The notes beneath the pieces were generated by a model. That model did no database searches, was not told the DNA's origin, and saw only the letters and a program-made list of their open reading frames with translations. Shown piece by piece: positions 3,065 through 63,547 of a DNA stretch of 64,000 bases (positions are counted from its first letter, which is position 1; the number at the start of each line of letters is the position of its first letter). Origin of the DNA: Okamejei kenojei (lineage: Eukaryota); assembly GCA_035221665.1 (NCBI GenBank), contig CM069136.1, positions 103,602,001-103,666,000 of the forward strand, given 5' to 3'. Made by a program: the position numbers and the translations under genes.

Positions 3065-3578
3065 TGACTGAGGCAGTGCAGCGTAGGTTCACGAGATTGA
3101 CCCCTGGAATGGCGGGACTGTCATATGAGGAAAGATTGAAAAGACTAGGCTTGTATTCACTGGAGTTTAAAAGGATGAGGGGGATCTTATAGAAACATAT
3201 AAAATTATAAAAGGACTGCACAAGCTAGATGCAGGAAAAATGTTCCCAATGTTGGGCGAGTCCAGAACCAGGGGCTACAGTCTTAGAATAAAGGGGAGGT
3301 CATTTAAGACTGAGGTGAGAACAAACATTTTCACCCAGAGAGTTGTGAATTTGTGGAATTCCCTGCCACCGAGGGCAGTGGAGGCCAAGTCACTGGATGG
3401 ATTTAAGAGAGAGTTAGATAGAGCTCTAGGGGCTAGTGGAGTCAAGGAATATGGGGAGAAGGCAGGCACGGGTTATTGTTAGCGGACGATCAGCCATGAT
3501 CACAATGAATGGCTCTGTGGCTCGAGGGGCCGAATGGCCTCCTCCTGCACCTATTTTCTATGTTTCTATGTTTCTATG
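3065..3578 (+). mobile_element. Young 5'-truncated CR1 LINE
   Basis: EAVQRRFTRLTPGMAGLSYEERLKRLGLYSLEF...FTQRVVNLWNSLP, with a (TTTCTATG)n tail. Inserted into an older CR1 with a short (tg)attg duplication. Confidence 0.9.
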
Positions 3579-3930
3579 ATTGAAACAGTTAAGATCCAGA
3601 GACGTTTTGAATGGGTGTATTTTCTTGTGGTAGAATCCAAACTAGGAATCACTAATTAAAAATAAGGGGATACCTGTATAATATTTAATTGAGGTTAAAT
3701 ATTTTCTCAGATAGGGAAATGAGTCTTGGGAATTCTCTTCCTCAATGGTTGCTGAAAGCTCAGTTGTTGATTACTTTGATGGCAGAGGTAGGTAGATATG
3801 TGATAAGGGTGAAAGGTTATTGGGGGTAGACAGGAATGTAGAATTAAAGTAACAATCAGAACAGCTATAATCGCAACTGATGTTGGAGCAGATGAGTACC
3901 CAATTGCCTTACTACTACAGATAATTTCTA
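3579..3930 (+). mobile_element. Old degenerate CR1 3' region (host of the 3065-3578 copy)
   Basis: Degenerate LIET...WNSLP...EVDR-like segments and 3' UTR. The upstream part lies at about 3020-3064. Confidence 0.6.
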
Positions 3931-5398: not shown

Positions 5399-5769
5399 AC
5401 ATAGAAACATAGAAACATAGAAATTAGGTGCAGGAGTAGGCCATTCAGCCCTTCGAGTCTGCACCGCCATTCAATATGATCATGGCTGATCATCCAACTC
5501 AGTATCCCGTACCTGCCTTCTCTCCATACCCTCTGATCCCCTTAGCCACAAGGGCCACATCCAACTCACTCTTAAATATAGCCAATGAACTGGCCTCAAC
5601 TACCCTCTGTGGCAGAGAGTTCCAGAGACTCACCACTCTCTGTGTGAAAAAAGTCTTTCTCATCTCGGTCTTAAAGGATTTCCCCCTTATCCTTAAGCTG
5701 TGACCCCTTGTCCTGGACTTCCCCAACATCGGGAACAATATTCCTGCATCTAGCCTGTCCAACCCCTTA
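5399..5769 (-). mobile_element. Young 5'-truncated CR1 LINE
   Basis: ORF 5499-5762(-) LDRLDAG...FFTQRVVSLWNSLPQRVVEA. (CATAGAAA)n tail on the + strand. ttacat is repeated at both ends. Confidence 0.92.
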
Positions 5770-7410: not shown

Positions 7411-10076
7411 TATATTTTAGTTAAGGGAATTAAAAGATAGTGTAGGGAAATGGCTCTGAGGTAAAAGGTTTTACTGAATCCTTGCCAATGACCAACGACC
7501 TAAATGTAGTGACCTTTCTTTTTGAAACTATTTGTGAACATTGTACATTGTTCTATGTGCTTTCATACTAACACAGTTGCGATGGACCAAGGCAATAGAC
7601 AAAAATAGCGAAGCAAGTAAATTTACTGTATTTATCCTATAGAGGTCGCTTTTATCTCATTATTCAGACAACTCGCATTGAGGAAATCAGCGAGCGGTTC
7701 GCAAAACTATGTCGAACCTTTCATAAGCTTACACCGTTTAATCCATGTGTTCGTTTAAAAAATCTGCGAGCACACGGATTTATGTGTAAAATAATATTTA
7801 ACAAAAGGCAAAAAGGAAGCGCTGGGAGTATCTTTCGTTATTTGGAACATTGTGTCAGGATATCCAAATGCCACATGGAATTATAAATTAAGCCCAAAAG
7901 TATTTTCATTAACAGAATGTTTAAAATGCAGCCAGAATAATGCGCAATCCCCACGATAAAACTCACATTTTCGACTTTCAAGAACTGACCACAACCTCTC
8001 TGAACTTTTCAAACATTACGCGTGCTAGTAATGGAAACGGGTGTTCGGTAACCAGAAAGAGTAATGTGGAGATGCTAAGAGGTAATTTCAAATTCTGCAG
8101 AGCTCGGTTTAGTATGATTAATTCCTTTGAAAGGTCGCCTTTTAGCCAGACAATAAAATGAAAACAAAATCGATATTCGCCCTCATGTTTGTTTACTGTT
8201 TTAATGCATTTGATATCGGCTGCAAATATTCCACTTCCATTGTTGCGAGCATACTTTGGAGGTTCAATGAGGCAACAAGAGAAAAAAAAAACGAACCGAT
8301 GCCTATGCGAGTCTGTGGGTACATATTTATTACATTTCAACCATTAAAGGTTTGCAATGATCACGCACAGTTGTCCCTGTAATTACACCCTGTGCCTCAA
8401 TGTGCAAGGAGCGAGTCGGCGCTAAATTGATCTTTCATCTGATGTACGGCTGGATAATTCAGATATCCACCCCCCTGGTCTTTAGAGCGCGATCTGTCGG
8501 AAGGTGTTCCAAAGTAAAGTTATTTTGAATTAGATGTTGGAGCGACAGCAATGCTTCCGGACGACAGTGGTTACTAGTCTTCGAATGGCCTTAGGGGGTC
8601 CACTGCAGCCGTTATCAGCTGTTCCGGGTGATCGAACTAAATTGACACGTCTTTATCCTTGAAAGTGTCAACACTAAAGCTCAAAATGCGCATCAACGTT
8701 AGCAAAAAAAAAAATGTAAAGAAAAAACAGATACCCAGAAACAAGTTTTTCTATGCAAATCTCCTTTGCACATTGCCTGTAATAAGTAAGTCAGGGTCCA
8801 AGAAACGAGATAATTGGCTTTGAAACTGACGAGGAAAGTGCCTGGAAATCGATCAACTGTCAGTGAAGAAATGAAGAAAATTGTCATCTGAGCAACCTGT
8901 TCATAACTGACATGGATCATATCTGAACTGGAAGCTAAAGAACCCGCACGTTGTAATTACAAAGAGCATCACGTTAAGATAGTCCATGTAAACTGCGTTT
9001 CGTTTAATTTCTCACTGCCTCTTTTGATGATCGAGCTGAGGGACTAGTATTTGCCATGATTTATCAGCGCGCACGCTGATCAAACTGATACGAGGTTTTC
9101 AGATCCTTCGGGGGAGATGTCGAAAATCAACGGGCCTGTGCACAAAACGTAGCTTCTTATTTGCTTGCCTGCTAATCCGCCACAGGGCTGGCGACGAGAA
9201 ACTGCCACGTTCTTTCGTTCGAGTTGTCTCCTAAAGAGTCAGATTAGTTTGTTGTGGTATCCGTGATTCCTGTTGGCATGAAGTTATAGGGCCAAATGGC
9301 TTGTTGCTGTGCTGTTCCTCCGCTCTAGATTCGCCGAGTACATACATGTAGCAATGATAAACACAGCAATAAATACACCAACCAGTGCAAAGCAGCAGAA
9401 CGGTGCTCTTGCAATAGTTTTTAAGTACTCTTAACGTATCTAATGGCTATAGGTCCAACTCTTTACTCCAGCACTTGGTGTTTTACTCAAGATTCCAGCA
9501 CTAGCTCCTTGTGCTTTCGTGGATATGTGATTGTAGTTTGCATCGCCTATTGTAGATTATTGATCCATTTGGTTATTCCAATCCACGCAAATAAAATATA
9601 TGCATTAATGTGGTGATTGATTAATAAGTGTTTCATACTCAAATAGCACATGGAATCAAAAAACAATCTAAATGTGCACTTACATTCCCCTTTTTTTTAT
9701 TTTCGAGGTTGTATGAATAAATTAACGGTCGAAGTTATTTATTGATAGGGTTTTTTTTTTGTAGATTTTGAAAGTGATATGAGTTGTTTCGATAGAAAAA
9801 TGTCCCTCAGCGGCTGAGATGCTGGACACAATTGAATCTCTATCAGGAGGTGTTTGTTACCTACACAGCCACGTGAGAACTCAAGTTTGTCGGACAGTTC
9901 GCTGTTTATAGGGAACCAATAGTTCACACAGTGTATCCCGTTGTTTTTTTTTTCACTCTCAGACAACCACCACCACCAGTGTGAGGTGACACATCCCGTG
10001 TTCCCATCGCTATTAAAATGCTGAATTCACGTTCACGTCTATAGTACCGGGAAACCACAAATACTTGTAAACAATG

Positions 10077-10120
10077 GTGAGTGAGTGAGTGAGTGAGTGA
10101 GTGAATGAGCGTGAGAGAGA
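10077..10120. repeat. (GAGT)n microsatellite
   Basis: gtgagtgagtgagtgagtgagtgagtga, seen directly. Confidence 0.9.
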
Positions 10121-10852
10121 AAGACAACGACGGCTGCACAAAGTAGCCACCTTTGGATGAAAGAGATGAATGACTAAATGTATGGGCTGATAATTAAAAG
10201 AAAATCTGCACCTTTCTAGTTCAAAAGGTGATTTAAAGTCTTAGATTTTCACTTTTCCTTTGCTCCCTGAACTGTTTTCTTCACGCTCCATTCTACAACA
10301 ATCTTTCACCAGAAACAGCTCCACATTTTAAGACAAGATAGTGATTGTGGTGTGTGTCGAAAATAAAATATTGTAATAGTTATTGGATGCTGGCTGCTGT
10401 GAGCGGTTAATGTCAGCAATTTTCGTTTTTTCTTTCCCTAGCACATTGTGAAATATTGCTTGTTTGTCAAATCAACGTCGGCCTTAATCAACATTTCTGC
10501 GGTCAAGTCGTTTTTTTTTTCTCTCTCCCTTCCACATGAATTCAAATGCGAGTTCTTGAAGTGGTTTGGCTTCAATTAAAAGCAAATACAATTACCATTG
10601 GGTCGTGCCTGGAATATCAGTCCGACACTTGCATCTATTAATCATGAGCTTCTTCTGGTCACCATTTAAATGAACTTCATATTTGACTGTCAGCTGCTTT
10701 GGGAATTATTCCATGTTTATTCACAGATTCTGATCTTGCATGTGCAAGCCTCTGCAAAATGACAAACACTTTTAGGGGGAAAATATAAGTAACGGGACAC
10801 GCTCTCCGTACACCGAATCTTTCGAATTTGCATCGAGAAAGACTAAAATACC

Positions 10853-10859
10853 GCGTGTT

Positions 10860-10893
<34 letters not shown>

Positions 10894-10905
10894 TGGGTGT
10901 GTGTG
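10853..10905. repeat. (GT)n(GA)n compound microsatellite
   Basis: Seen directly. Confidence 0.9.
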
Positions 10906-11547
10906 CTCGGCGACCTGTTGAAAAATAAAACTAACGGGGAACTTTGCGCCCAGATGCACGCCAACCGTTCTGTCCGATTCTGGGAGATTTCTATTTGTTT
11001 ATGAATATAAATGAGTCCCTCATCAATTAACCAGTAGTGAATAACTCAGCGGTTTGTTCAAATGTTCCCTCACCAATCCCCTCCCTCCCATCCCATCTTC
11101 ACCCCCCCCCCCCCCCCTCCCCAAAAAGAAGGTTTGCGTCGAGTTAGCGATCTTGACAATACCTCGTTGAGACTATAAACTGTGACAAGAGCTTGGCACG
11201 TAACAAAAGGACAATTTGAAGACCTCGTCTCGGAGCCGCTGAATTTTAAATGATCTTATTGATTTATTTCGCATCACAATCTGTCGCTTCTGCACTTAAA
11301 GAGCAGCAATTCTCTATTTTGAAAAATAATTGCGGTCTCTCTTTCTAAATTAAAACGGGGGAGGGGTGAATATATGTCATTTTAACTGCACGTTGAATTC
11401 TATGCGATTGTTTTACAGAAGCTTTTTGCAATTATTCCCAACGCAGTTTTTGAGTCTCAGCTGTCCGCTGGGAATGAAAAAAATGCCAAGGGAATGAAAA
11501 GAAGCGTGTTTCCCCCAATACCCACCATCCGCCTCCCTCCCACCCAC

Positions 11548-12268
11548 CCACACACACACACATACACACACACGCATCAATAATGCTGCCACTCAAAAAT
11601 ATTTTTCATATATACATTAGAAACTTTACTCTTGTCTCGCGTCAATAATCTCCCACTCCCCGTCACCCGCCCAACTTTTTTTTTTAAATCCACGGACGAT
11701 GGTTTAGAGCCAGTTTACTTGTTCATTCGTGCGCTGGTCTCGTACAGAATGGCTACATTTAATCCTGTCGTGTTGATACGGCGCGGTGCCTAGTTTGTGT
11801 ACAAAATCAACGCACTAGTTATAGATCTTGTGCCGTTGTTTGCTTGGTATGCGTGTGTGTGTTTGTGTGTTTCTGTGTGTGTGTGTGTGTGTGTGTTAAT
11901 TGTGACAAAATCCCTCGGCTAAGGTTTATTGTTTACCCGACGGTCGCTGAAAAGGCTGACCTGTTCGTTCTGCCCCGCTGTGTTTTAATAACTTTGGTAT
12001 TTCTTCATGCTTTTCATATAAAATGACAGGCTTCAAAGCCGAGAGGGACTAGAGGGAGCGGGGGTCCTGCATGCATCTCTCTCCTGGGTGGGAAAGCAGA
12101 TTATACCAACAATGTAAGATTCGTCTTAATAGTTACTGTTGTTCTGTGTCCCCTCTTTCTTTAACCTCACGTGTTTAGTACAGGAACTGAGAGAAGACCG
12201 ATTGATGCGCCCCCGGTGTAGAAGCGATTGTGGCTTGGATCACTCTTACTCATAAGTAAATTGATACT

Positions 12269-12300
<32 letters not shown>

Positions 12301-12504
12301 ACAAACCCCACTGACGGCGGAGATAGTACAGGGTGTAGGCGGCCCATCGTGTGTATAGTCGCAAAGTTGATCCATTGATGCCTTCAGATCTTTGGCGATG
12401 AAATAGTGAACGCATTGATTTCAGTGCAATAATCCGGTTTGATTTATTCAGGTGGAGGGCTGGACGGCGTGTGTGTGTGTGTTGGGGGGGGGGGGGGGGG
12501 GGGG
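11548..12504. repeat. Cluster of (CA)n/(GT)n tracts and a poly-G run
   Basis: (CA)n at about 11548-11575 and 12277-12302. (GT)n at about 11848-11896 and 12468-12482. G run at 12484-12504. Confidence 0.85.
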
Positions 12505-12649
12505 AGAGGGTGAAGAGGTCTGTTTTGTATTTTGAAGGGGTGTGTGGAGAGGTTGCGGATTCGGTGAAAATTTTTGGATATGTTGCTCCGTGATTAATAC
12601 TCTGCTGAAACAATGACGGCTGCGTGAATCACAGATGTCGGACAGTTGT

Positions 12650-12714
12650 TCTCTCCCTCTCTCTCTCTCTCTCTCTCCCTCTCTTTCTCTCTCTCTACAT
12701 ATATATATATATAT
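12650..12714. repeat. (CT)n followed by (AT)n
   Basis: Seen directly. Confidence 0.9.
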
Positions 12715-12998
12715 GAACCGCTCTAAACTGATCTCCAGGAAATACTTCGAGATCCCCAACACCCACTGTTGATGCCTGCACACATATATCTCGCATTTCA
12801 ATTATATTAGAGAAGCGATTTGTCGTAAACTAGTTCCGTCCCACTTGAAGCGCTCTATCCCTAACTATTCTCGTGTGCGAATCAGCGTGCCTCTCTCTCT
12901 CTGATGCGAGTGTAAAGGGTGCCATTTGATTTATTCCTGGCTGGAAACTTAATTGCTCCGCCCCCGGGATACCGTGTGACAAGTCATTTCTCCTTTTG

Positions 12999-13078
12999 AT
13001 GTGTATGTGTGTGTGTGTGTGTGTGTTATGTGTGTGTGTGTGTGTATGTGTGTGTGTGTGTTATGTGTATGTGTGTGT
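12999..13078. repeat. Imperfect (TG)n tract, about 80 bp
   Basis: Seen directly. Confidence 0.9.
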
Positions 13079-13306
13079 TTATCCGGCGGACCTGCTCTCC
13101 GAGAATCTTAAACATAACTTCATCAAAGCCTGCGCTGGCCTCCTGAGTAGAGAGCGAGAGAGAGACAACTTTGATCAAATACAGAGCCAACACTGAGCGT
13201 TTTTTTTGTTTTTGTTTTTTTTTGTTGTTCAATGATTCTTGGTTCTTATAAAAAGGAGAATTGAGGCGCTTGGGTGTTCTACCAAATTCTATATGTACCA
13301 GCGACC

Positions 13307-13845
13307 ATGGCCACGCCGATGGCTCTGATCCCGCCCGCTCCGGTGAATCAGACTCTGATCGCGACCCCTTCCTCCTCTTCCTCCTCCTCATCTTCTTCCT
13401 CTTCTTCCTCGCCGGCCATCTCGTCCATTCCTGCGTCCTCGGCGACTGGCGGCGGAGGGGGCGCCGGGGCAGCACAGACTCTCTACCGAGCGGACGGGAG
13501 CTCCAAGCCGGTTTACTCCACGCCGTCTCCGGTGGAGAACACACCGCAGAACAACGAGTGTAAAATGGTCGAGCTGCGAGCGGCCAAAGTGGCCTCGTTC
13601 ACCGTGGATGGACACGAGCTCATCTGTTTGCCTCAGGCTTTCGACCTGTTCCTCAAGCACCTGGTCGGGGGGCTTCACACTGTCTACACCAAATTAAAGA
13701 GGCTGGATATTACACCGGTGGTCTGCAATGTGGAACAAGTGCGCATTCTCCGAGGGCTGGGGGCAATCCAGCCCGGGGTGAACCGCTGTAAACTGATCTC
13801 CAGGAAAGACTTCGAGGTCCTCTACAACGACTGCACCAATGCCAG
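13307..13845 (+). CDS. DACH1: Dachshund homolog 1, coding exon 1 (low-complexity N-terminus plus Ski/Sno/Dac DACHbox-N/DD1 domain)
   Basis: ATG in strong Kozak context (gcgaccATGG). Translates MATPMALIPP...KPVYSTPSPVENTPQNNECKMVELRAAKVASFTVDGHELICLPQAFDLFLKHLVGGLHTVYTKLKRLDITPVVCNVEQVRILRGLGAIQPGVNRCKLISRKDFEVLYNDCTNA. KPVYSTPSPVENTPQNNECKMV, PQAF and VCNVEQ match DACH1 rather than DACH2 as I recall those proteins. Ends at a canonical donor AG|GTAAGT (phase 2). Confidence 0.95.
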
Positions 13846-16800
13846 GTAAGTGTCCCGCTGGCGCAACCAAGGCTTCCCCCACCCCAGCACTGTGAAAGTG
13901 AAAGTTTCATTCTTAATTTTAAATCGGCAGGAACTAAAGTTCCTGAAAAGCGAGAATAACATTTCACACTCGGAGGGAAAGACGGGGAGTGGGGGTATAG
14001 GGGGGGGGGGGGGGGGGGTTGCGGTCAATGGGTGCGAGGGCTTGGTTAGTTTCAGCCCCCTCTTGCCAATCGCATCGTTAAAGCGGTGAGTTTCACAGCG
14101 GGACTCTCTCCGGGGAAGCTCTGTCCTGCCACTTCTTCATTGCAGTTCCCTGGGACACGCTTCTGACTCTGACACACTTCACCCACATCCAAGTTCAGCG
14201 TTTCTCCGCGAACACGCTGCGGGTTCCTGCGCTCTTCGCGCTATCAGCGCCACCTGTTTGATGTGCTCCCTCCTTCCACTGCAAGTAGCCAGAACTAATG
14301 AAGGTTTATAAAAATAAAAACTCAAAAGCACGAGCTTCCCGTTTATCGTCGCCCCCACCCCCTCCCCCCACCCCACTCCACTCCAGTTTAGAGACTAGAT
14401 CTAAAGAGAGAGGAGCAAAGACTCAGCGGGTCAGGCAGCATCGCTGGGGAAGGAACTACGAATTAATGTTGCCGTTTAATTAGCCTTTCATCGCCTGTTA
14501 TTATCGGATTTCATCTTTCCAATAGCTGCTGCCAATCTTATCACAGGGCGCACGTTAGGCGGTTTTAAATGGTTCGCTTTCTTTCGGTCAGAGGTTAGAA
14601 CTGATGTAAGGAAAGAAGTTTGTTCACAAGCGAAAGCATGTTCGGTCAGCTTTCGTGGAAACTTTGGTAGTGTTCTGTTCTGTGGAGTAGAGAAAGATAT
14701 CCGAAGAGAACTTTAAGCTTTCACACCCCGCCTGGTTTCTCCAATCTACCTCGCACACCTTATCGCAGAACAATTAAACAACTCCGTGCTCATATCGCCA
14801 TATGAGCCCACGTCTGTCTCCTCTCAGGAACATATGTTCCGGCGAGTACGCATATCGGGGAAATTCTGAATTATATTCATGGTACATTTTACTTTGAAAT
14901 AATTCAAAATAAAATTCTTCACTTTTGCTGTTATTTTTAGTTCAAACTAATGTTTAATCTGATTTAGGAAAAAAAAATCTACTAAATCCTTGAGTAATAA
15001 TTAGCCACATCAGTTGAAAGAGAGATAAGATGTAAGCGACTTATTTTTCTTATTACTTTTAATGTACGGTTTCATGAATAAATGTTTCAAGTAATAGAAA
15101 CCCATTGAGTGCATTCTCGCTAATATGATGTGTTGCAAAATAACAGGCTGTACCAGATGGCTGCCAACAATTGTGCATTTACACCACCCATTAATAGCTT
15201 CACTTTGATCTTTTTATGCTTTAGAATATATGGCACATCGCTGAGTTCTGACGTGTACGTTGTACTGTGCCCTTTAATGATCCATATCAATTTAAAAGAG
15301 TCTGGCAGTATCACATGTTGCAAGAACAACATTCACAACACCCACACTGGTGTCTTCCTTTGCCCTCATCAGGTTTCTGTTGATCTAAAGTAATAGGGCC
15401 GGCACTGTGTTTCGTGTTTTTAGTCAAAATGACTTCATGCAAGAGCTAAATTTATAATTTGCAGGAATACAGAGTTAAATTGATACTTTTCAATACCATG
15501 CACTATCCCTTATCCTGTTATGTTTCACTGAAGAATCCATTAGTGTATTAAAAGTGTTGGTATCTTTTCCTGAACAATGCGGTCTAATGTTCAGTAAAAC
15601 AATCTTACCTCATGAAAGAGTTGCTTCAAAATATGTTACCTTGATGACACCTCTGTTGAAAGTTGTCATAGCTTTTGATAAAAGCATGATTAAATGGGTG
15701 ATCTTTAACCTCCCTTGTTATCTGGCTACTGCAGTATCATTCCACAGATTTAAAACTTAAATTTAAAATGATTCTTGTTGGGGTTTTTTTGAGGGGGAGT
15801 GTTTTAGTTTTAGCTGAGTTGTAAGCATAATTAGACCATGGATAGCTTAAACCAACGAGACAAGGTTACAACATCTTGCTCAGCCACATCTGTCATTTAA
15901 TGCTTATTGTTTCACAGAGAGCTACAGATCAATTTACCCTTCAGGATGATCAAAATAGCTTTGGCAATGGAATTATTAAAATGAGTCCATGTTATGCAAT
16001 TCGTCAGCGGCTCAATAATTTTTTGCAAAGCATAACTTAACCTGCCTCACATTGACACAGCTCATAATCATAATAGTGATTTCTTGTGGTCCACCAATAA
16101 GTGTAAAATACTGTTAAAGCATTTTCTAGATTACTGAGTGACCATGGAAATCTCTACACATCAACGAGCACCTCTTGAATTACTTCATAGTGAGTGGAAG
16201 TTTTGCACATGCAGTCATCAAGTAAATTAGCCGTGTGATGCAAGGAAATACAAAATACGGGTAGTCTGAAAATCTTTGTGATTAATATTTTTATTGCTGT
16301 AAATGATTAGGCACACATTTAATCATCAATGACTACTATTATATATCTTAACCATTCAGTATTGGAATGGTTAAGATATGTTAAAAAAAAACAGCAATGT
16401 GATTTTTGAAGATGTATATGAAAATAATAATAATTTCATGCTCAATAGGAGGAACTTGCCTAATATATCATCATAACCCATTACTGACTACTAAGGTGCA
16501 AACATCTGATTTTACTTATTTTTAACATTAGCATGATAAGACAAGGTGGAATAATTTCTAGAAAAGTATGAATCCTGTTCCGTAACGGTACCCAAAAAAT
16601 GTTTGTCTGATATTCTGCACACATTATTTCAACAGATCAATGGCTAATTATAACATTTCTATATTTGGATAATCTAGGTGAGCCTGAACAAAGTGCATTA
16701 CATCATATTTCATTGGTGTCATAAAGAAAGAGCATTCCTTGTAGGGTTGAGAAATAATATTCTGTTCAATGTACACACTACAAATGTTCTTATTAGTAAA

Positions 16801-27408: not shown

Positions 27409-28048
27409 ACATAGAAACATAGAAACATAGAAACATAGAAATTAGGTGCAGGAGTAGGCCATTCAGCCCTTCGAGCCTGCACCGCCATTCAATAAGATCA
27501 TGGCTGATCATCCAACTCAGTATCCCGTACCTGCCTTCTCTCCATACCCCCTGATCCCCTTAGCCACAAGGGCCACATCCAACTCACTCTTAAATATAGC
27601 CAATGAACTGGCCTCAACTACCCTCTGTGGCAGAGAGTTCCAGAGACTCACCACTCTCTGTGTGAAAAAAGTCTTTCTCATCTCGGTCTTAAAGGATTTC
27701 CCCCTTATCCTTAAGCTGTGACCCCTTGTCCTGGACTTCCCCAACATCGGGAACAATCTTCCTGCATCTAGCCTGTCCAACCCCTTAAGAATTTTGTAAG
27801 TTTCTATAAGATCCCCTCTCAATCTCCTAAATTCCAGAGAGTATAAACCGAGTCTATCCAGTCTTTCTTCATAAGACAGTCCTGACATCCCAGGAATCAG
27901 TCTGGTGAACCTTCTCTGCACTCCCTCTATGGCAATAATGTCCTTCCTCAGATTTGGAGACCAAAACTGTACGCAATACTCCAGGTGTGGTCTCACCAAG
28001 ACCCTGTACAACTGAAGTAGAACCTCCCTGCTCCTGTACTCAAATCCT
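27409..28048 (-). mobile_element. Young 5'-truncated CR1 LINE
   Basis: ORF 27517-28011(-) LYRVLVRPHLEYCVQFWSP...KAGTGY is uninterrupted. (CATAGAAA)3 tail. Confidence 0.95.
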
Positions 28049-34019: not shown

Positions 34020-35020
34020 AGGAGACACAAGAAACTACAGATGCTGGAATGTGGATCGAAACACAGTGCTGGAGGAGCTCAGTAAGCCTGGCAATATCTG
34101 CGGGGGAAATTTACCATTTGGGTTGATTGGAATAGGGGAAGGTTACAGCTGGAAAGGAGAGGGGGTGGCGATACAAAGCTTGGATAAGTGTTAGGTTGAT
34201 ACAGGGGTATGATAGACAGATGTAAGTGAGAAGTTTGGAGTTGAAAAGGAGACAAAGGGATGCCAGATAAGGAAAGGAGAGGAGGAATGAGATATAAAGG
34301 TGAAGAGTGGAATTTGAGTGGATTTAGAAACATAGAAAATAGGTGCAGGAGTAAGTCATTCGGCCCTTTGAGCCCGCAACACCATTCAATATGATCATGG
34401 CTGATCATCCAACTCAGTATCCTGTACCTGCCTCTCTCCATACCCCCTGATCCCTTTAGCCACAAGGGCCACATCTAACTCCTTCTTAAATATAGCCAAT
34501 GAACTGGCCTCAACTACCTTCTGTGGCAGAGAATTCCAGAGACTCACCACTCTCTGCATGAAAAATGTTTTCCTCATCTCGGTCCTAAAGGAATTCCCCC
34601 TTATCCTTAGACTGTGGCCCCTTGTTCTGGACCTCCCCAACATCAGGAACAATCTTCCTGCATCTAGCCTGTCCAACCCCTTAACATTTTTGTAAGTTTC
34701 TATAAGATCCCCCCTCATCTTCTACATTCTAGAATTAGGTGGATTCCCATCCCAATTTTCCTTTTTATCTATCCCAGGGAAAAAGTGAGTCATACAAGGA
34801 AAATGAGGGAATCTGGTATGCTCATATGTAAGCAGCATGTGCAAGGTTTGCTTATCATTCCCAAGCCCATTAAATTTAAATTCGAAATAGTGATGTAGGG
34901 TCTTGAACGGAACTGTTGACCATTCCTTTCCCTTCACAGATATTGCCTGAATGGCTAAGTTTCTGCAGTAGTTTGGACTTTGCTCCAGATTTCAGCATCT
35001 GCTGCCCCTTGTGCCTCCAA
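34020..35020. mobile_element. Old Penelope-like element with inverted termini, interrupted by CR1
   Basis: Minus-oriented terminus at 34020-34120 (cagatgctggaat...gctggaggagctcag) with a purine-rich tract. Plus-oriented terminus at 34890-35020 (gggtcttga...ccagatttcagcatctgc). Confidence 0.55.
34325..34724 (-). mobile_element. Young 5'-truncated CR1 LINE
   Basis: ORF 34395-34718(-) MRGDLIETYK...QRVVSLWNSLPQKVVEA, with tail tagaaacatagaaa. Confidence 0.92.
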
Positions 35021-59663: not shown

Positions 59664-60496
59664 GAGGGATGGAGATCGTTATCCAAACATGGGGGATCAC
59701 AATTTNNNNNNNNNNNNNNNNNNNNNNNNNNNNNNNNNNNNNNNNNNNNNNNNNNNNNNNNNNNNNNNNNNNNNNNNNNNNNNNNNNNNNNNNNNNNNNN
59801 NNNNNNNNNNNNNNNNNNNNNNNNNNNNNNNNNNNNNNNNNNNNNNNNNNNNNNGGGCCCTGTGGATGGTAACATCGGGAGTTAACCTGGTTGGTGACCG
59901 ACTCCGAACTCCAATAACAGCAGCTTCATCTGCCCCGAATCGTGGGGCTTCAATCGGCCCGTTCGCGGGGCCTTTCATCGCCCGGCGCAGCTTAAAATTG
60001 CCGCGGGATCTTCGATCGCTCGGCAGGAGCTTCAACATCAGGAACCTCGATTGCCTCAGCGATTTGACTGTGGGGCAGTGGAAGATCCGGAGGCCGATTT
60101 TAAGCCGATGAAAACCCCCGTGAACTGGCTCCGCTGTATGATCTTTGCTCCACCAGGACGTCTCCCACCTCCAATCACCACGCCCTATCCTCAGTCCCAA
60201 CCTCCGCTTCCACCTCTGACTGACATTTCCCTCCTCCAATCATTGTGCTGAATCATCATGTCCCGCCACCCACTGCCTGCTGACTGACGTCTCCCTTGTC
60301 CAATCGGTGCCCTCCTTCAATCATCAGTCCCACCCCCATTGTCCCGCGGAAAGCGGAGATTTTTCATAGATTTCACCGTATTTCAAAATCCGGATTACAA
60401 AACATGGGGGGGGGGGAAATTGTCCCCCACCTCTCAAAACCCGAGGGGGACATGTCCCCCCCCCGTCGCCCCACCCCCCCAGGATTTCCGCCCATG
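59664..60496. mobile_element. hAT-like composite insertion inside a V-SINE, spanning an assembly gap
   Basis: 8-bp duplication ggtgctgt at 59656-59663 and 60497-60504. Right end ggatttccgcccatg; the left TIR matches only 9/15. CpG-rich repeat at 59855-60110. Confidence 0.45.
59706..59854. other. Assembly gap (149 N)
   Basis: Run of N. Confidence 1.
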
Positions 60497-60730: not shown

Positions 60731-62507
60731 AAGAAAATGTCTAGGATATGGTCACTCCTCAGAGAGCGTTCGCTTCAGTACATCACTCAACATGTACTCC
60801 CATACCTTGGGAAGTGCCAACCGACAGCATTTGGTTGCGGACATCTCTTTACACTGGAAGACCAACCCAAGTGTACCTTTCACTCAGTTGACAATCTTCC
60901 AGATGCAGTTATTGTTTGACTCGGTATGGGTCCTGGGGAACATTATATCCAAGGACAACATCTCCAAATCAGAATCTTGTCAGAATGTCAGAAAGACTGC
61001 AAACTGCACTCTTTTAGTTAAAAGGGAATGTGAATGAGAACAAATTACCTTTCAACATTTCACTTGCAGCTGAACAGTGTCAGGAGCTAGAATGGTAAGA
61101 AGCACCTTACTTCTAAATCCTTCCTGAATTAAATAGCTTTTTTATTATGGGCAGCTCCTGAAATGTTGTAACTTTCCTTTTTAAATGACAATAGATTTTG
61201 CAGTTTAATAAAACAACTGCTGGCCATTTTCTGACTATTTCTTACCTTTCCTAAAGGTACATTCCACAGGCATCAGTCAACCTCAGTAGTTGGTTATTAT
61301 TTGTGTTTGGACACAGGCAATCCTTCTGTACTTCATAAACTCCGGAAGTTATAAAAGTGGAAATTCTACTCAAATAGTATTGGGAAGTGTTAGAACATAA
61401 ACTGCAATATATTATTAAAAAAGGTTAAAGAAGAACAATTGGCACATACGAGTCATGTTAATGATCGTTGACTCTTCAGATTTAATAATTGGAGTTTACA
61501 ATGAGAGGCTTTTTGTTCAGAGATTATTACGTGCACGTGCACTGAACACTTCTCAGCTCACATCACCTGAATAGTAGAGCAATGTTGTGCAATATCTGGA
61601 GTAAACATGTTTTCCCCTGATTACCTTGGTCTTCTTCTTATCGAGTCCACACACAAGACTAGAAGTTGTCCAGCCAGAGCTGAACACACTTCTCTGCATC
61701 TGGGTACAATGGTGTCCGTCTAGCGCTTCTTGTGCTTCGTGTGCATGGCGGTGGAAAGATTGGTGAAAACAGGGCCGCGACGTGAACGTTCTTGCCTTGA
61801 CCCCACCACCTTGGTGATTAATGAGTAGTCCAATCCCTTCCAACACTCATCTGGATGCAGTTGCTTGGGATGGCTTCTGACTGAGGATGCAGGGCCTTGC
61901 TCTTGTGATTAACAAGCTCCACCCTCAAAAATGATTTGATACTTTGATAAACCAGGCCACTCATTTTACCACCTGTTAAAACCATCTTAAACGCTTGGAA
62001 AGTTTGAAGACAAACTACTAAAATTAACATAGTTTTTTTTAAATTACATCAATACTTAAAAGTAATTTTACTTTTATAAATGAAAACTATTAAAACACAA
62101 GTAATCAAAAATAAAAAAGAAACAACTAAATATATAAAATGCAATCTTAATTAATTCAAAGAAAAATAGATTGGCAAGTATTTACTGAATCTTCCAAAAA
62201 CATTGTTGTAAATAAAGTTGCTGACGTTGCCTAGTCTAATTTGGCAAAAGTTCAGTTCACAAACATAGCAGAGAAACATCAAGACATTGGTGGTTGTCTC
62301 TTGGGGTCCATTTCACGAAGCTTGGGTCAGATGAATGATGATCAGATGTGATTGAGGCTATGATTTTGATCCCCCTGCACCTGTGTGGTGCACCAGTGCC
62401 TTGCTATTTCTCCTCATCAAGCACTCAGTCTCTGCTTAGAAAGTTACTGTGAAATGTTCTCCCTCTGCCCTTTCAAATATTGCTGCCCAGATTGTGGCAA
62501 CCTATCT

Positions 62508-63077
62508 GTTGTACAGGGTCTTGGTGAGACCACACCTGGAGTATTGCGTACAGTTTTGGTCTCCAAATCTGAGGAAGGACATTATTGCCATAGAGGGAGT
62601 ACAGAGAAGGTTCACCAGACTGATTCCTGGGATGTCAGGACTGTCTTATGAAGAAAGACTGGATAGACTCGGTTTATACTCTCTAGAATTTAGGAGATTG
62701 AGAGGTGATCTTATAGAAACTTACAAAATTCTTAAGGGGTTGGACAGGCTAGATGCAGGAAGATTGCTCCCGATGTTGGGGAAGTCAAGAACAAGGGGTC
62801 ACAGCTTAAGGATAAGGGGGAAATCCTTTAAGACCGAGATGAGAAATACTTTTTTCACACAGAGAGTGGTGAGTCTCTGGAACTCTCTGCCACAAAGAGT
62901 AGTTGAGGCCAGTTCATTGGCTATATTTAAGAGGGAGTTAGATGTGGCCATTGTGGCTAAGGGGATCAGAGAGTATGGAGAGAAGGCAGGTACGGGATAC
63001 TGAGTTGGATGATCAGCCATGATCATATTGAATGGCGGTGCAGGCTCGAAGGGCCGAATGGCCTACTCCTGCTCCTA
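62508..63077 (+). mobile_element. Young 5'-truncated CR1 LINE
   Basis: LYRVLVRPHLEYCVQFWSP...KAGTGY*, nearly identical to 27409-28048(-). The microsatellite tail is missing. Confidence 0.95.
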
Positions 63078-63547
63078 AGAGATGAGTGAAAATCAAGGGA
63101 TTGTATAATGTACAGATTTTCTGAGCACCAACTCAGAACTATGTTATAATACAATGTACCAGGTTGTCAGAGCTTGACAAATATTCATTATGATACAGTT
63201 TTCTACTGTTGTGAGATTTTTCAGTGGAGGGTGACAATTGGAAAGGCATTTTGGTATTGTTCCCTCAATAGTGGATGAAGGATACATATGAATAGGGCAA
63301 CACAAGGTATAAATCCTCCCAACACAACAGCTTGAAGAAGAATGATTAGTGATGTCTTTAAGAAATCTAAGCCACAAAGCTGAAGATTGAACAATTAATT
63401 TGATGGCATATCTTAAAACAAAGGACTAAAATTAAGTTAAGAATTAGATTGAAAGACAAAATAATCTTAAAGAATAAATGACATTGTTGTTTTTTTTTAA
63501 AATTAGGGTGATAGAGTCGGAGAGTAATACAGTGTAGAAATACCTCA

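Follow-up and report, generated by a model that had tools for sequence, protein, structure and literature searches.

A 55-nt copy of the end of DACH1 coding exon 1 lies upstream of the gene in four organisms and is probably a decaying templated insertion

A 55-nt piece of the first coding exon of DACH1 is present a second time, 1065 bp upstream of its donor segment and in the same orientation, at the edge of a compound microsatellite in a 64,000-nucleotide stretch of genomic DNA of Okamejei kenojei (the window). This copy is real and shared by a lineage: we found it in four organisms. Probably, 55-56 nt of exon 1 were copied into the microsatellite by template switching while a break was repaired in an ancestor of these four related organisms, and the copy has been decaying since then without a function. 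The features concerned are the following:

12650..12714 (no strand): compound microsatellite to the left of the copy, (TC)n at 12650-12696 and (AT)n at 12699-12714
12714..12769 (+): copy of the exon segment, 55 nt long (56 nt with 12769); 48 of 55 nucleotides identical without gaps
12713..12772 (+): 19-codon ORF whose ATG arises where the (AT)n tract meets the copy and whose stop lies in the right junction
12635..12772 (+): 45-codon ORF in the same frame, from an earlier ATG at 12635 through the microsatellite
13307..13845 (+): DACH1 coding exon 1, identified by Pfam, PDB and protein matches, with the splice donor GT at 13846
13779..13834 (+): donor segment, the end of the Dachshund homology domain, from the self-match and 1L8R

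DACH1 is a regulator of limb and sense-organ development. Exon 1 matched the Pfam domain Ski_Sno_DHD (PF02437) with an E-value of 1e-42 and human Dachshund (PDB 1L8R) with an E-value of 2e-59, and its best named protein match was a sawfish dachshund homolog 1-like protein (91%), which points to a ray-like elasmobranch; no batoid exon-1 protein was found by name among the best 120 of 618 matches. Judged by these similarities, the donor is the end of coding exon 1 of DACH1, which carries the Ski/Sno/Dac homology domain. Four shark DACH1 isoforms (P0006-P0009) continue after exon 1 with a sequence unlike the usual exon 2, which suggests an extra exon or alternative splicing.

Recalculation reproduced the geometry of the original prediction: 12714-12768 aligns with 13779-13833 without gaps, with 48 of 55 identical nucleotides (87%) and 39 of 42 over the first 42, at an offset of 1065 bp, and the ATG at 12713 opens a frame of 19 amino acids. 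In a BLASTN self-search of the whole window this pair had an E-value of 1.4e-11, and the duplicated letters were these 55 nt alone, the intervening 1010 nt between the copy and the donor being free of duplication. In the exon contig of organism B (see below), the alignment extends by one more base, through 12769, and the copy may therefore have measured 56 nt originally; in that case a later synonymous change may have occurred in the exon of organism A. A continuation of the similarity (atgcc) toward the splice donor had also been claimed, and this part did not hold up, since 41% of 3000 random local positions score equally. The same figure led us to reject the idea that the copy reaches precisely to the splice donor, an end point that would have hinted at an RNA template.

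Nine self-matches less than 3 kb apart were found in the window, most of them overlapping sequences that are repeated elsewhere in it. Short direct pairs without a further copy were limited among these nine to the exon copy with its donor and to 26116-26175/26806-26865. The latter is a direct repeat with 77% identity, 690 bp apart and of no obvious repeat family; its neighbor is a 97% pair (26396-26530/26987-27121) that recurs at other places in the window. Of the inverted pairs, 112 in all, the 25 longest consist only of simple repeats. The window also contains an interspersed repeat family with 77-99% identity (3070-3581, 5399-5769, 27417-28015, 34325-34733 and 62505-63078) and an assembly gap of 149 N at 59706-59854.

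A comparable upstream copy was found in none of 80 other animal Dach loci, 50 of which had at least 1200 nt upstream (none of them is known to be elasmobranch). These loci yielded one unrelated 19-nt inverted match, and among the matches listed the only upstream similarity was that of the window copy itself to the exon of one locus (L001).

The run index gave 24 runs from 13 studies, five of which contained half or more of the words of the region, and contigs of four of the 24 runs were compared with the window: X5, X6, X11 and X13, from organisms A, B, C and D, respectively. In X5, a second sample, one contig covers 12721-12990 with two differences, one of them in the copy (12761); in X6, a contig over the same interval shows six substitutions and agrees with the exon at 12764. 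The exon forms a separate contig in both runs, with six mismatches, which is the number expected. The depths of the copy and exon contigs were 22.4 and 23.6 in X5 and 8.59 and 8.45 in X6; by depth, the copy is single in organisms A and B. X11 covers 12730-12990. The X13 contig (depth 2.2) begins to align at 12778. Its loose end was placed by eye and comprises the 3' part of the copy and the same stop, with the exon's letter at 12756, 12758 and 12764 and a third letter at 12762; seven letters replace 12775-12777, and the right junction differs between organisms A and D. Positions 12645-12720, including the region of the ATG, were masked and uncovered in all four runs, and 12510-12713 had zero cover in all of them, probably as a result of filtering or masking.

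The copy is older than one change in the exon. Ile is found in all 18 elasmobranch DACH1 records (seven species; sharks and sawfish) at the codon that encodes Val in the window exon and Ile in the copy; since the copy keeps the Ile codon and the exon now has Val, the copy predates the exon change. With these records as reference, the difference at 12752 arose later, in the exon, the copy having kept the older state, and the remaining six differences arose in the copy. To this extent the seven mismatches of the original prediction need a correction: six belong to the copy and one, that at 12752, to the exon.

The residues altered by the six copy-side changes are, in order, C, D, L, Y, N and D. 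Among 120 fetched proteins (many of these are isoforms and not independent), N is conserved in 119 and each of the other five residues in all 120. At the same positions in the 80 animal Dach loci, no variation is seen at C, L and the final D, Y is present in 77, and the first D and N vary. It had been predicted that the substitutions mostly change amino acids, and in fact all six copy-side changes in the window are non-synonymous, as are both additional changes in the relatives. Since the changes hit near-invariant residues, the peptide does not appear to be preserved, and we observed no purifying selection on the 19-aa peptide. In a neutral simulation with six changes, the probability of no stop was 0.84 and that of all changes being non-synonymous was 0.21; under this model, neutral drift would very likely leave the frame open.

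Several features of the substitutions remain unexplained if the copy is simply decaying, and we count them against that reading. None of the eight copy-side changes (six in the window, one in X5 and one in X13) falls at a third codon position (P = 0.035; for the six window changes alone, P = 0.08), and the changes cluster in the 3' third of the copy. The persistence of the copy in four organisms beside a developmental gene is also counted against it. Between organism D and the window, 4 of 18 nt are different toward the 3' end of the copy, against 3 of 209 nt in the flank (Fisher P = 0.0009); the first of these counts comes from a by-eye alignment of a single contig end at depth 2.2. A single event that changed several bases, constraint on the flank, gene conversion by the exon in D or an error of the thin contig could each account for this cluster.

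The flanks of the insertion share a short word, which was found by flank word comparison:

12697..12704 (+): left copy of the 8-nt flank repeat ACATATAT
12782..12789 (+): right copy of the 8-nt flank repeat ACATATAT, 12 nt from the right end of the insertion

An equally long shared flank word occurred at 1.3% of 3000 random local positions, and ACATATAT is itself microsatellite sequence. At the left junction, a 2-nt TG is shared, 2 nt being near chance. We suggest that the (AT)n tract provided a broken or stalled end (no allele without the insertion was seen in the runs compared, all of which carry the stretch), that this end could have primed on the nearby exon through the TG microhomology, and that about 56 nt of the exon would then have been copied before the end was rejoined. 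The in-frame ATG would be a by-product of this step, with its A from the repeat and its TG from a Val codon. The main transcription start presumably lies downstream of the copy, which would leave the ORF outside the mRNA. The sharp 55-nt patch common to four organisms agrees with the local templated insertion or relic that had been proposed, and its being older than the exon change and carrying its own changes at conserved residues agrees with the neutrality suspected there.

The copy might instead be what is left of a longer duplication of exon 1 that was mostly deleted later, and would be functionless in this case as well. The same orientation and the short distance would fit such an origin, as would the presence of the other local direct repeat at 26116-26175/26806-26865. 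However, the similarity ends abruptly at either edge of the copy, the exon and the promoter have no other duplicated piece, and the extension toward the end of the exon is at chance level; we regard this origin as unlikely.

The surroundings of the copy were scanned for promoter motifs, which gave one candidate region:

12891..12990 (+): candidate proximal promoter downstream of the copy, from the motif scan, with TGATTTAT at 12927, a GC box at 12958 and TGACAA at 12977

We take the match at 12958 to be a GC box and that at 13247 to be TATA-like, both from the motif scan and both downstream of the copy; two further TATA-like matches fall within the (AT)n tract and were rejected as repeat sequence. 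TGATTTAT, presumably a PBX-HOX-like motif, flanks the insertion at 12440 and 12927, and its 9-nt form occurs nine times in the window. Across the four runs, 12891-12990 has 2 listed variant sites in 100 nt, and a stronger constraint there than in 12778-12890 is unsupported (2/100 versus 5/113, P = 0.45). The interval 10000-15000 is CpG-rich around exon 1 (observed/expected 0.6-1.05) and dense in microsatellites, and beyond 15000 the ratio goes down to 0.13-0.48. An Rfam search of 10000-16000 gave one match only, far below the threshold (SCARNA7 at 11469-11654, minus strand, 23.9 bits versus 65); it lies over simple repeats and is probably due to chance.

It is quite unlikely, in our opinion, that the insertion is an unstable cis-regulatory element, fast-mutating and tandemly amplified in some relatives, that tunes the DACH1 promoter. 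Ten contigs were obtained from X11 (organism C), with distinct versions of 12730-12793 at depths of 352.5, 198, 92.7, 61.8, 36.7, 28 and 7, while the unique right flank had a depth of 65.1, below the top copy versions; one version continues into CT-rich letters after 12792. A tandem array with a unit of roughly 40-140 nt would give this pattern, and we take it as a hint of one. The position of the copy between two TGATTTAT motifs in a CpG-rich region and the clustering of changes in its 3' part would also fit. On the other hand, the depth of a contig is no measure of copy number, enrichment, pooling or PCR stutter could mimic the same picture in X11, a small run of unspecified library type, and the copy is single by depth in A and B. 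The broader proposal that a fast-evolving, copy-number-variable exon fragment, amplified in tandem in one relative or more, tunes DACH1 in rays, either as a promoter minisatellite or via an upstream antisense RNA pairing with the end of exon 1, is a long shot.

The original prediction had also considered a translated uORF or a micropeptide mimicking the end of the Dachshund domain. The frame is indeed open in the register of the exon, the differences listed for X5, X6 and X11 include neither a frameshift nor a stop over the portion of the copy covered, and the stop is visible in the loose end of X13. The 1065-bp offset is a multiple of three and the ATG of the copy is in the genomic frame of the DACH1 CDS, for which the chance is one in three. 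Against a peptide stand the non-synonymous changes at conserved residues and the neutral expectation of an open frame. In addition, the ATG at 12713, which is masked in the relatives, has T at -3 and A at +4, a context as weak as had been predicted; ten further ATGs lie between the copy and the true DACH1 start; and the 19-aa ORF spans about 19 of the 109 positions of the Ski_Sno_DHD domain. The 45-aa ORF, which runs through the (TC)n/(AT)n tract, is absent from the protein collection searched, and in a search for homologues 0 of 708 candidates reached E <= 10 (a weak test with a very short query). The RNA rows in the run index were six metagenomes with a 0.09 share of the words of the region, and three runs of organism A guessed to be RNA had a share of 0.07, both being weak tests that speak neither for nor against transcription. 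Nothing in the frame, context or homologue data suggests a maintained micropeptide, and a translated product seems very improbable to us.

CpG-island promoters often fire upstream antisense RNAs. A divergent antisense promoter RNA with the reverse complement of the copy could pair with the end of exon 1 beside the splice donor, and the predicted duplex has -84 kcal/mol versus -110 for a perfect one. This energy follows from the homology alone, though; two of the seven mismatches would be G-U pairs and the other five break the pairing, which argues against selection for antisense pairing. We find this role hardly credible. An assembly or polishing artefact, for which one could cite the adjoining microsatellites and which the original prediction had already doubted, is practically excluded by the presence of the copy in contigs of the second sample and of three other organisms and by its codon now lost from the window exon, which polishing or misassembly of the present exon could not have supplied.

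As a neutral relic, the copy would be a dated fossil of the exon that keeps a codon since lost from the gene. Its presence can mark a group of rays as a shared derived character, and it is a clean case, in the germline, of a gene with a patch of its own coding sequence in its upstream region. If the hint from organism C is true, a promoter tandem repeat born from an exon could be tested directly as a source of differences in expression.

No description of a DACH1 promoter copy was found in the literature covered, which mostly leaves out subscription journals. With microProteins, as far as described in the accessible parts of PMC4807768 and PMC9638782, the 19-aa ORF shares its short length and its relation to a transcription factor domain; it differs in comprising only a part of the domain (about 19 of 109 positions) rather than an intact interaction domain, in having lost conserved residues, six of them being changed, and in being known from sequence. 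Two classes of templated sequence insertion polymorphisms (TSIPs) can be compared on the basis of the available text of PMC5110952. The flank word could be read as the target-site duplication of a class 1 TSIP or retrocopy, for which at least 5 bp are given; unlike these, the copy has no poly(A) tail, AATAAA or crossed exon junction (there is no A tract after the copy and no AATAAA on the plus strand in 12200-13320), and its 8-nt flank word is microsatellite sequence 12 nt off the right end. Like class 2 TSIPs, it is a short patch without a poly(A) tail or signal, which fits break repair; the donors of that class are distant, whereas here the donor is 1065 bp away.

Germline templated insertions of at least 25 bp number about 100 per human genome, with 103 and 99 in two people, and microhomology was present at 138 of 155 and 135 of 148 junctions in two people, according to the part of PMC8421209 available to us. 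The copy resembles these insertions, termed MMB-TI in that source, in being a heritable insertion of at least 25 bp with a template from the same region and possible junction microhomology (55 nt, 87% identity, template 1065 bp away). It differs from the insertions described in that text in being old, diverged and shared between organisms, and in having the coding sequence of the adjacent gene as its template. The element adds a further example to a mutation class that is already known.
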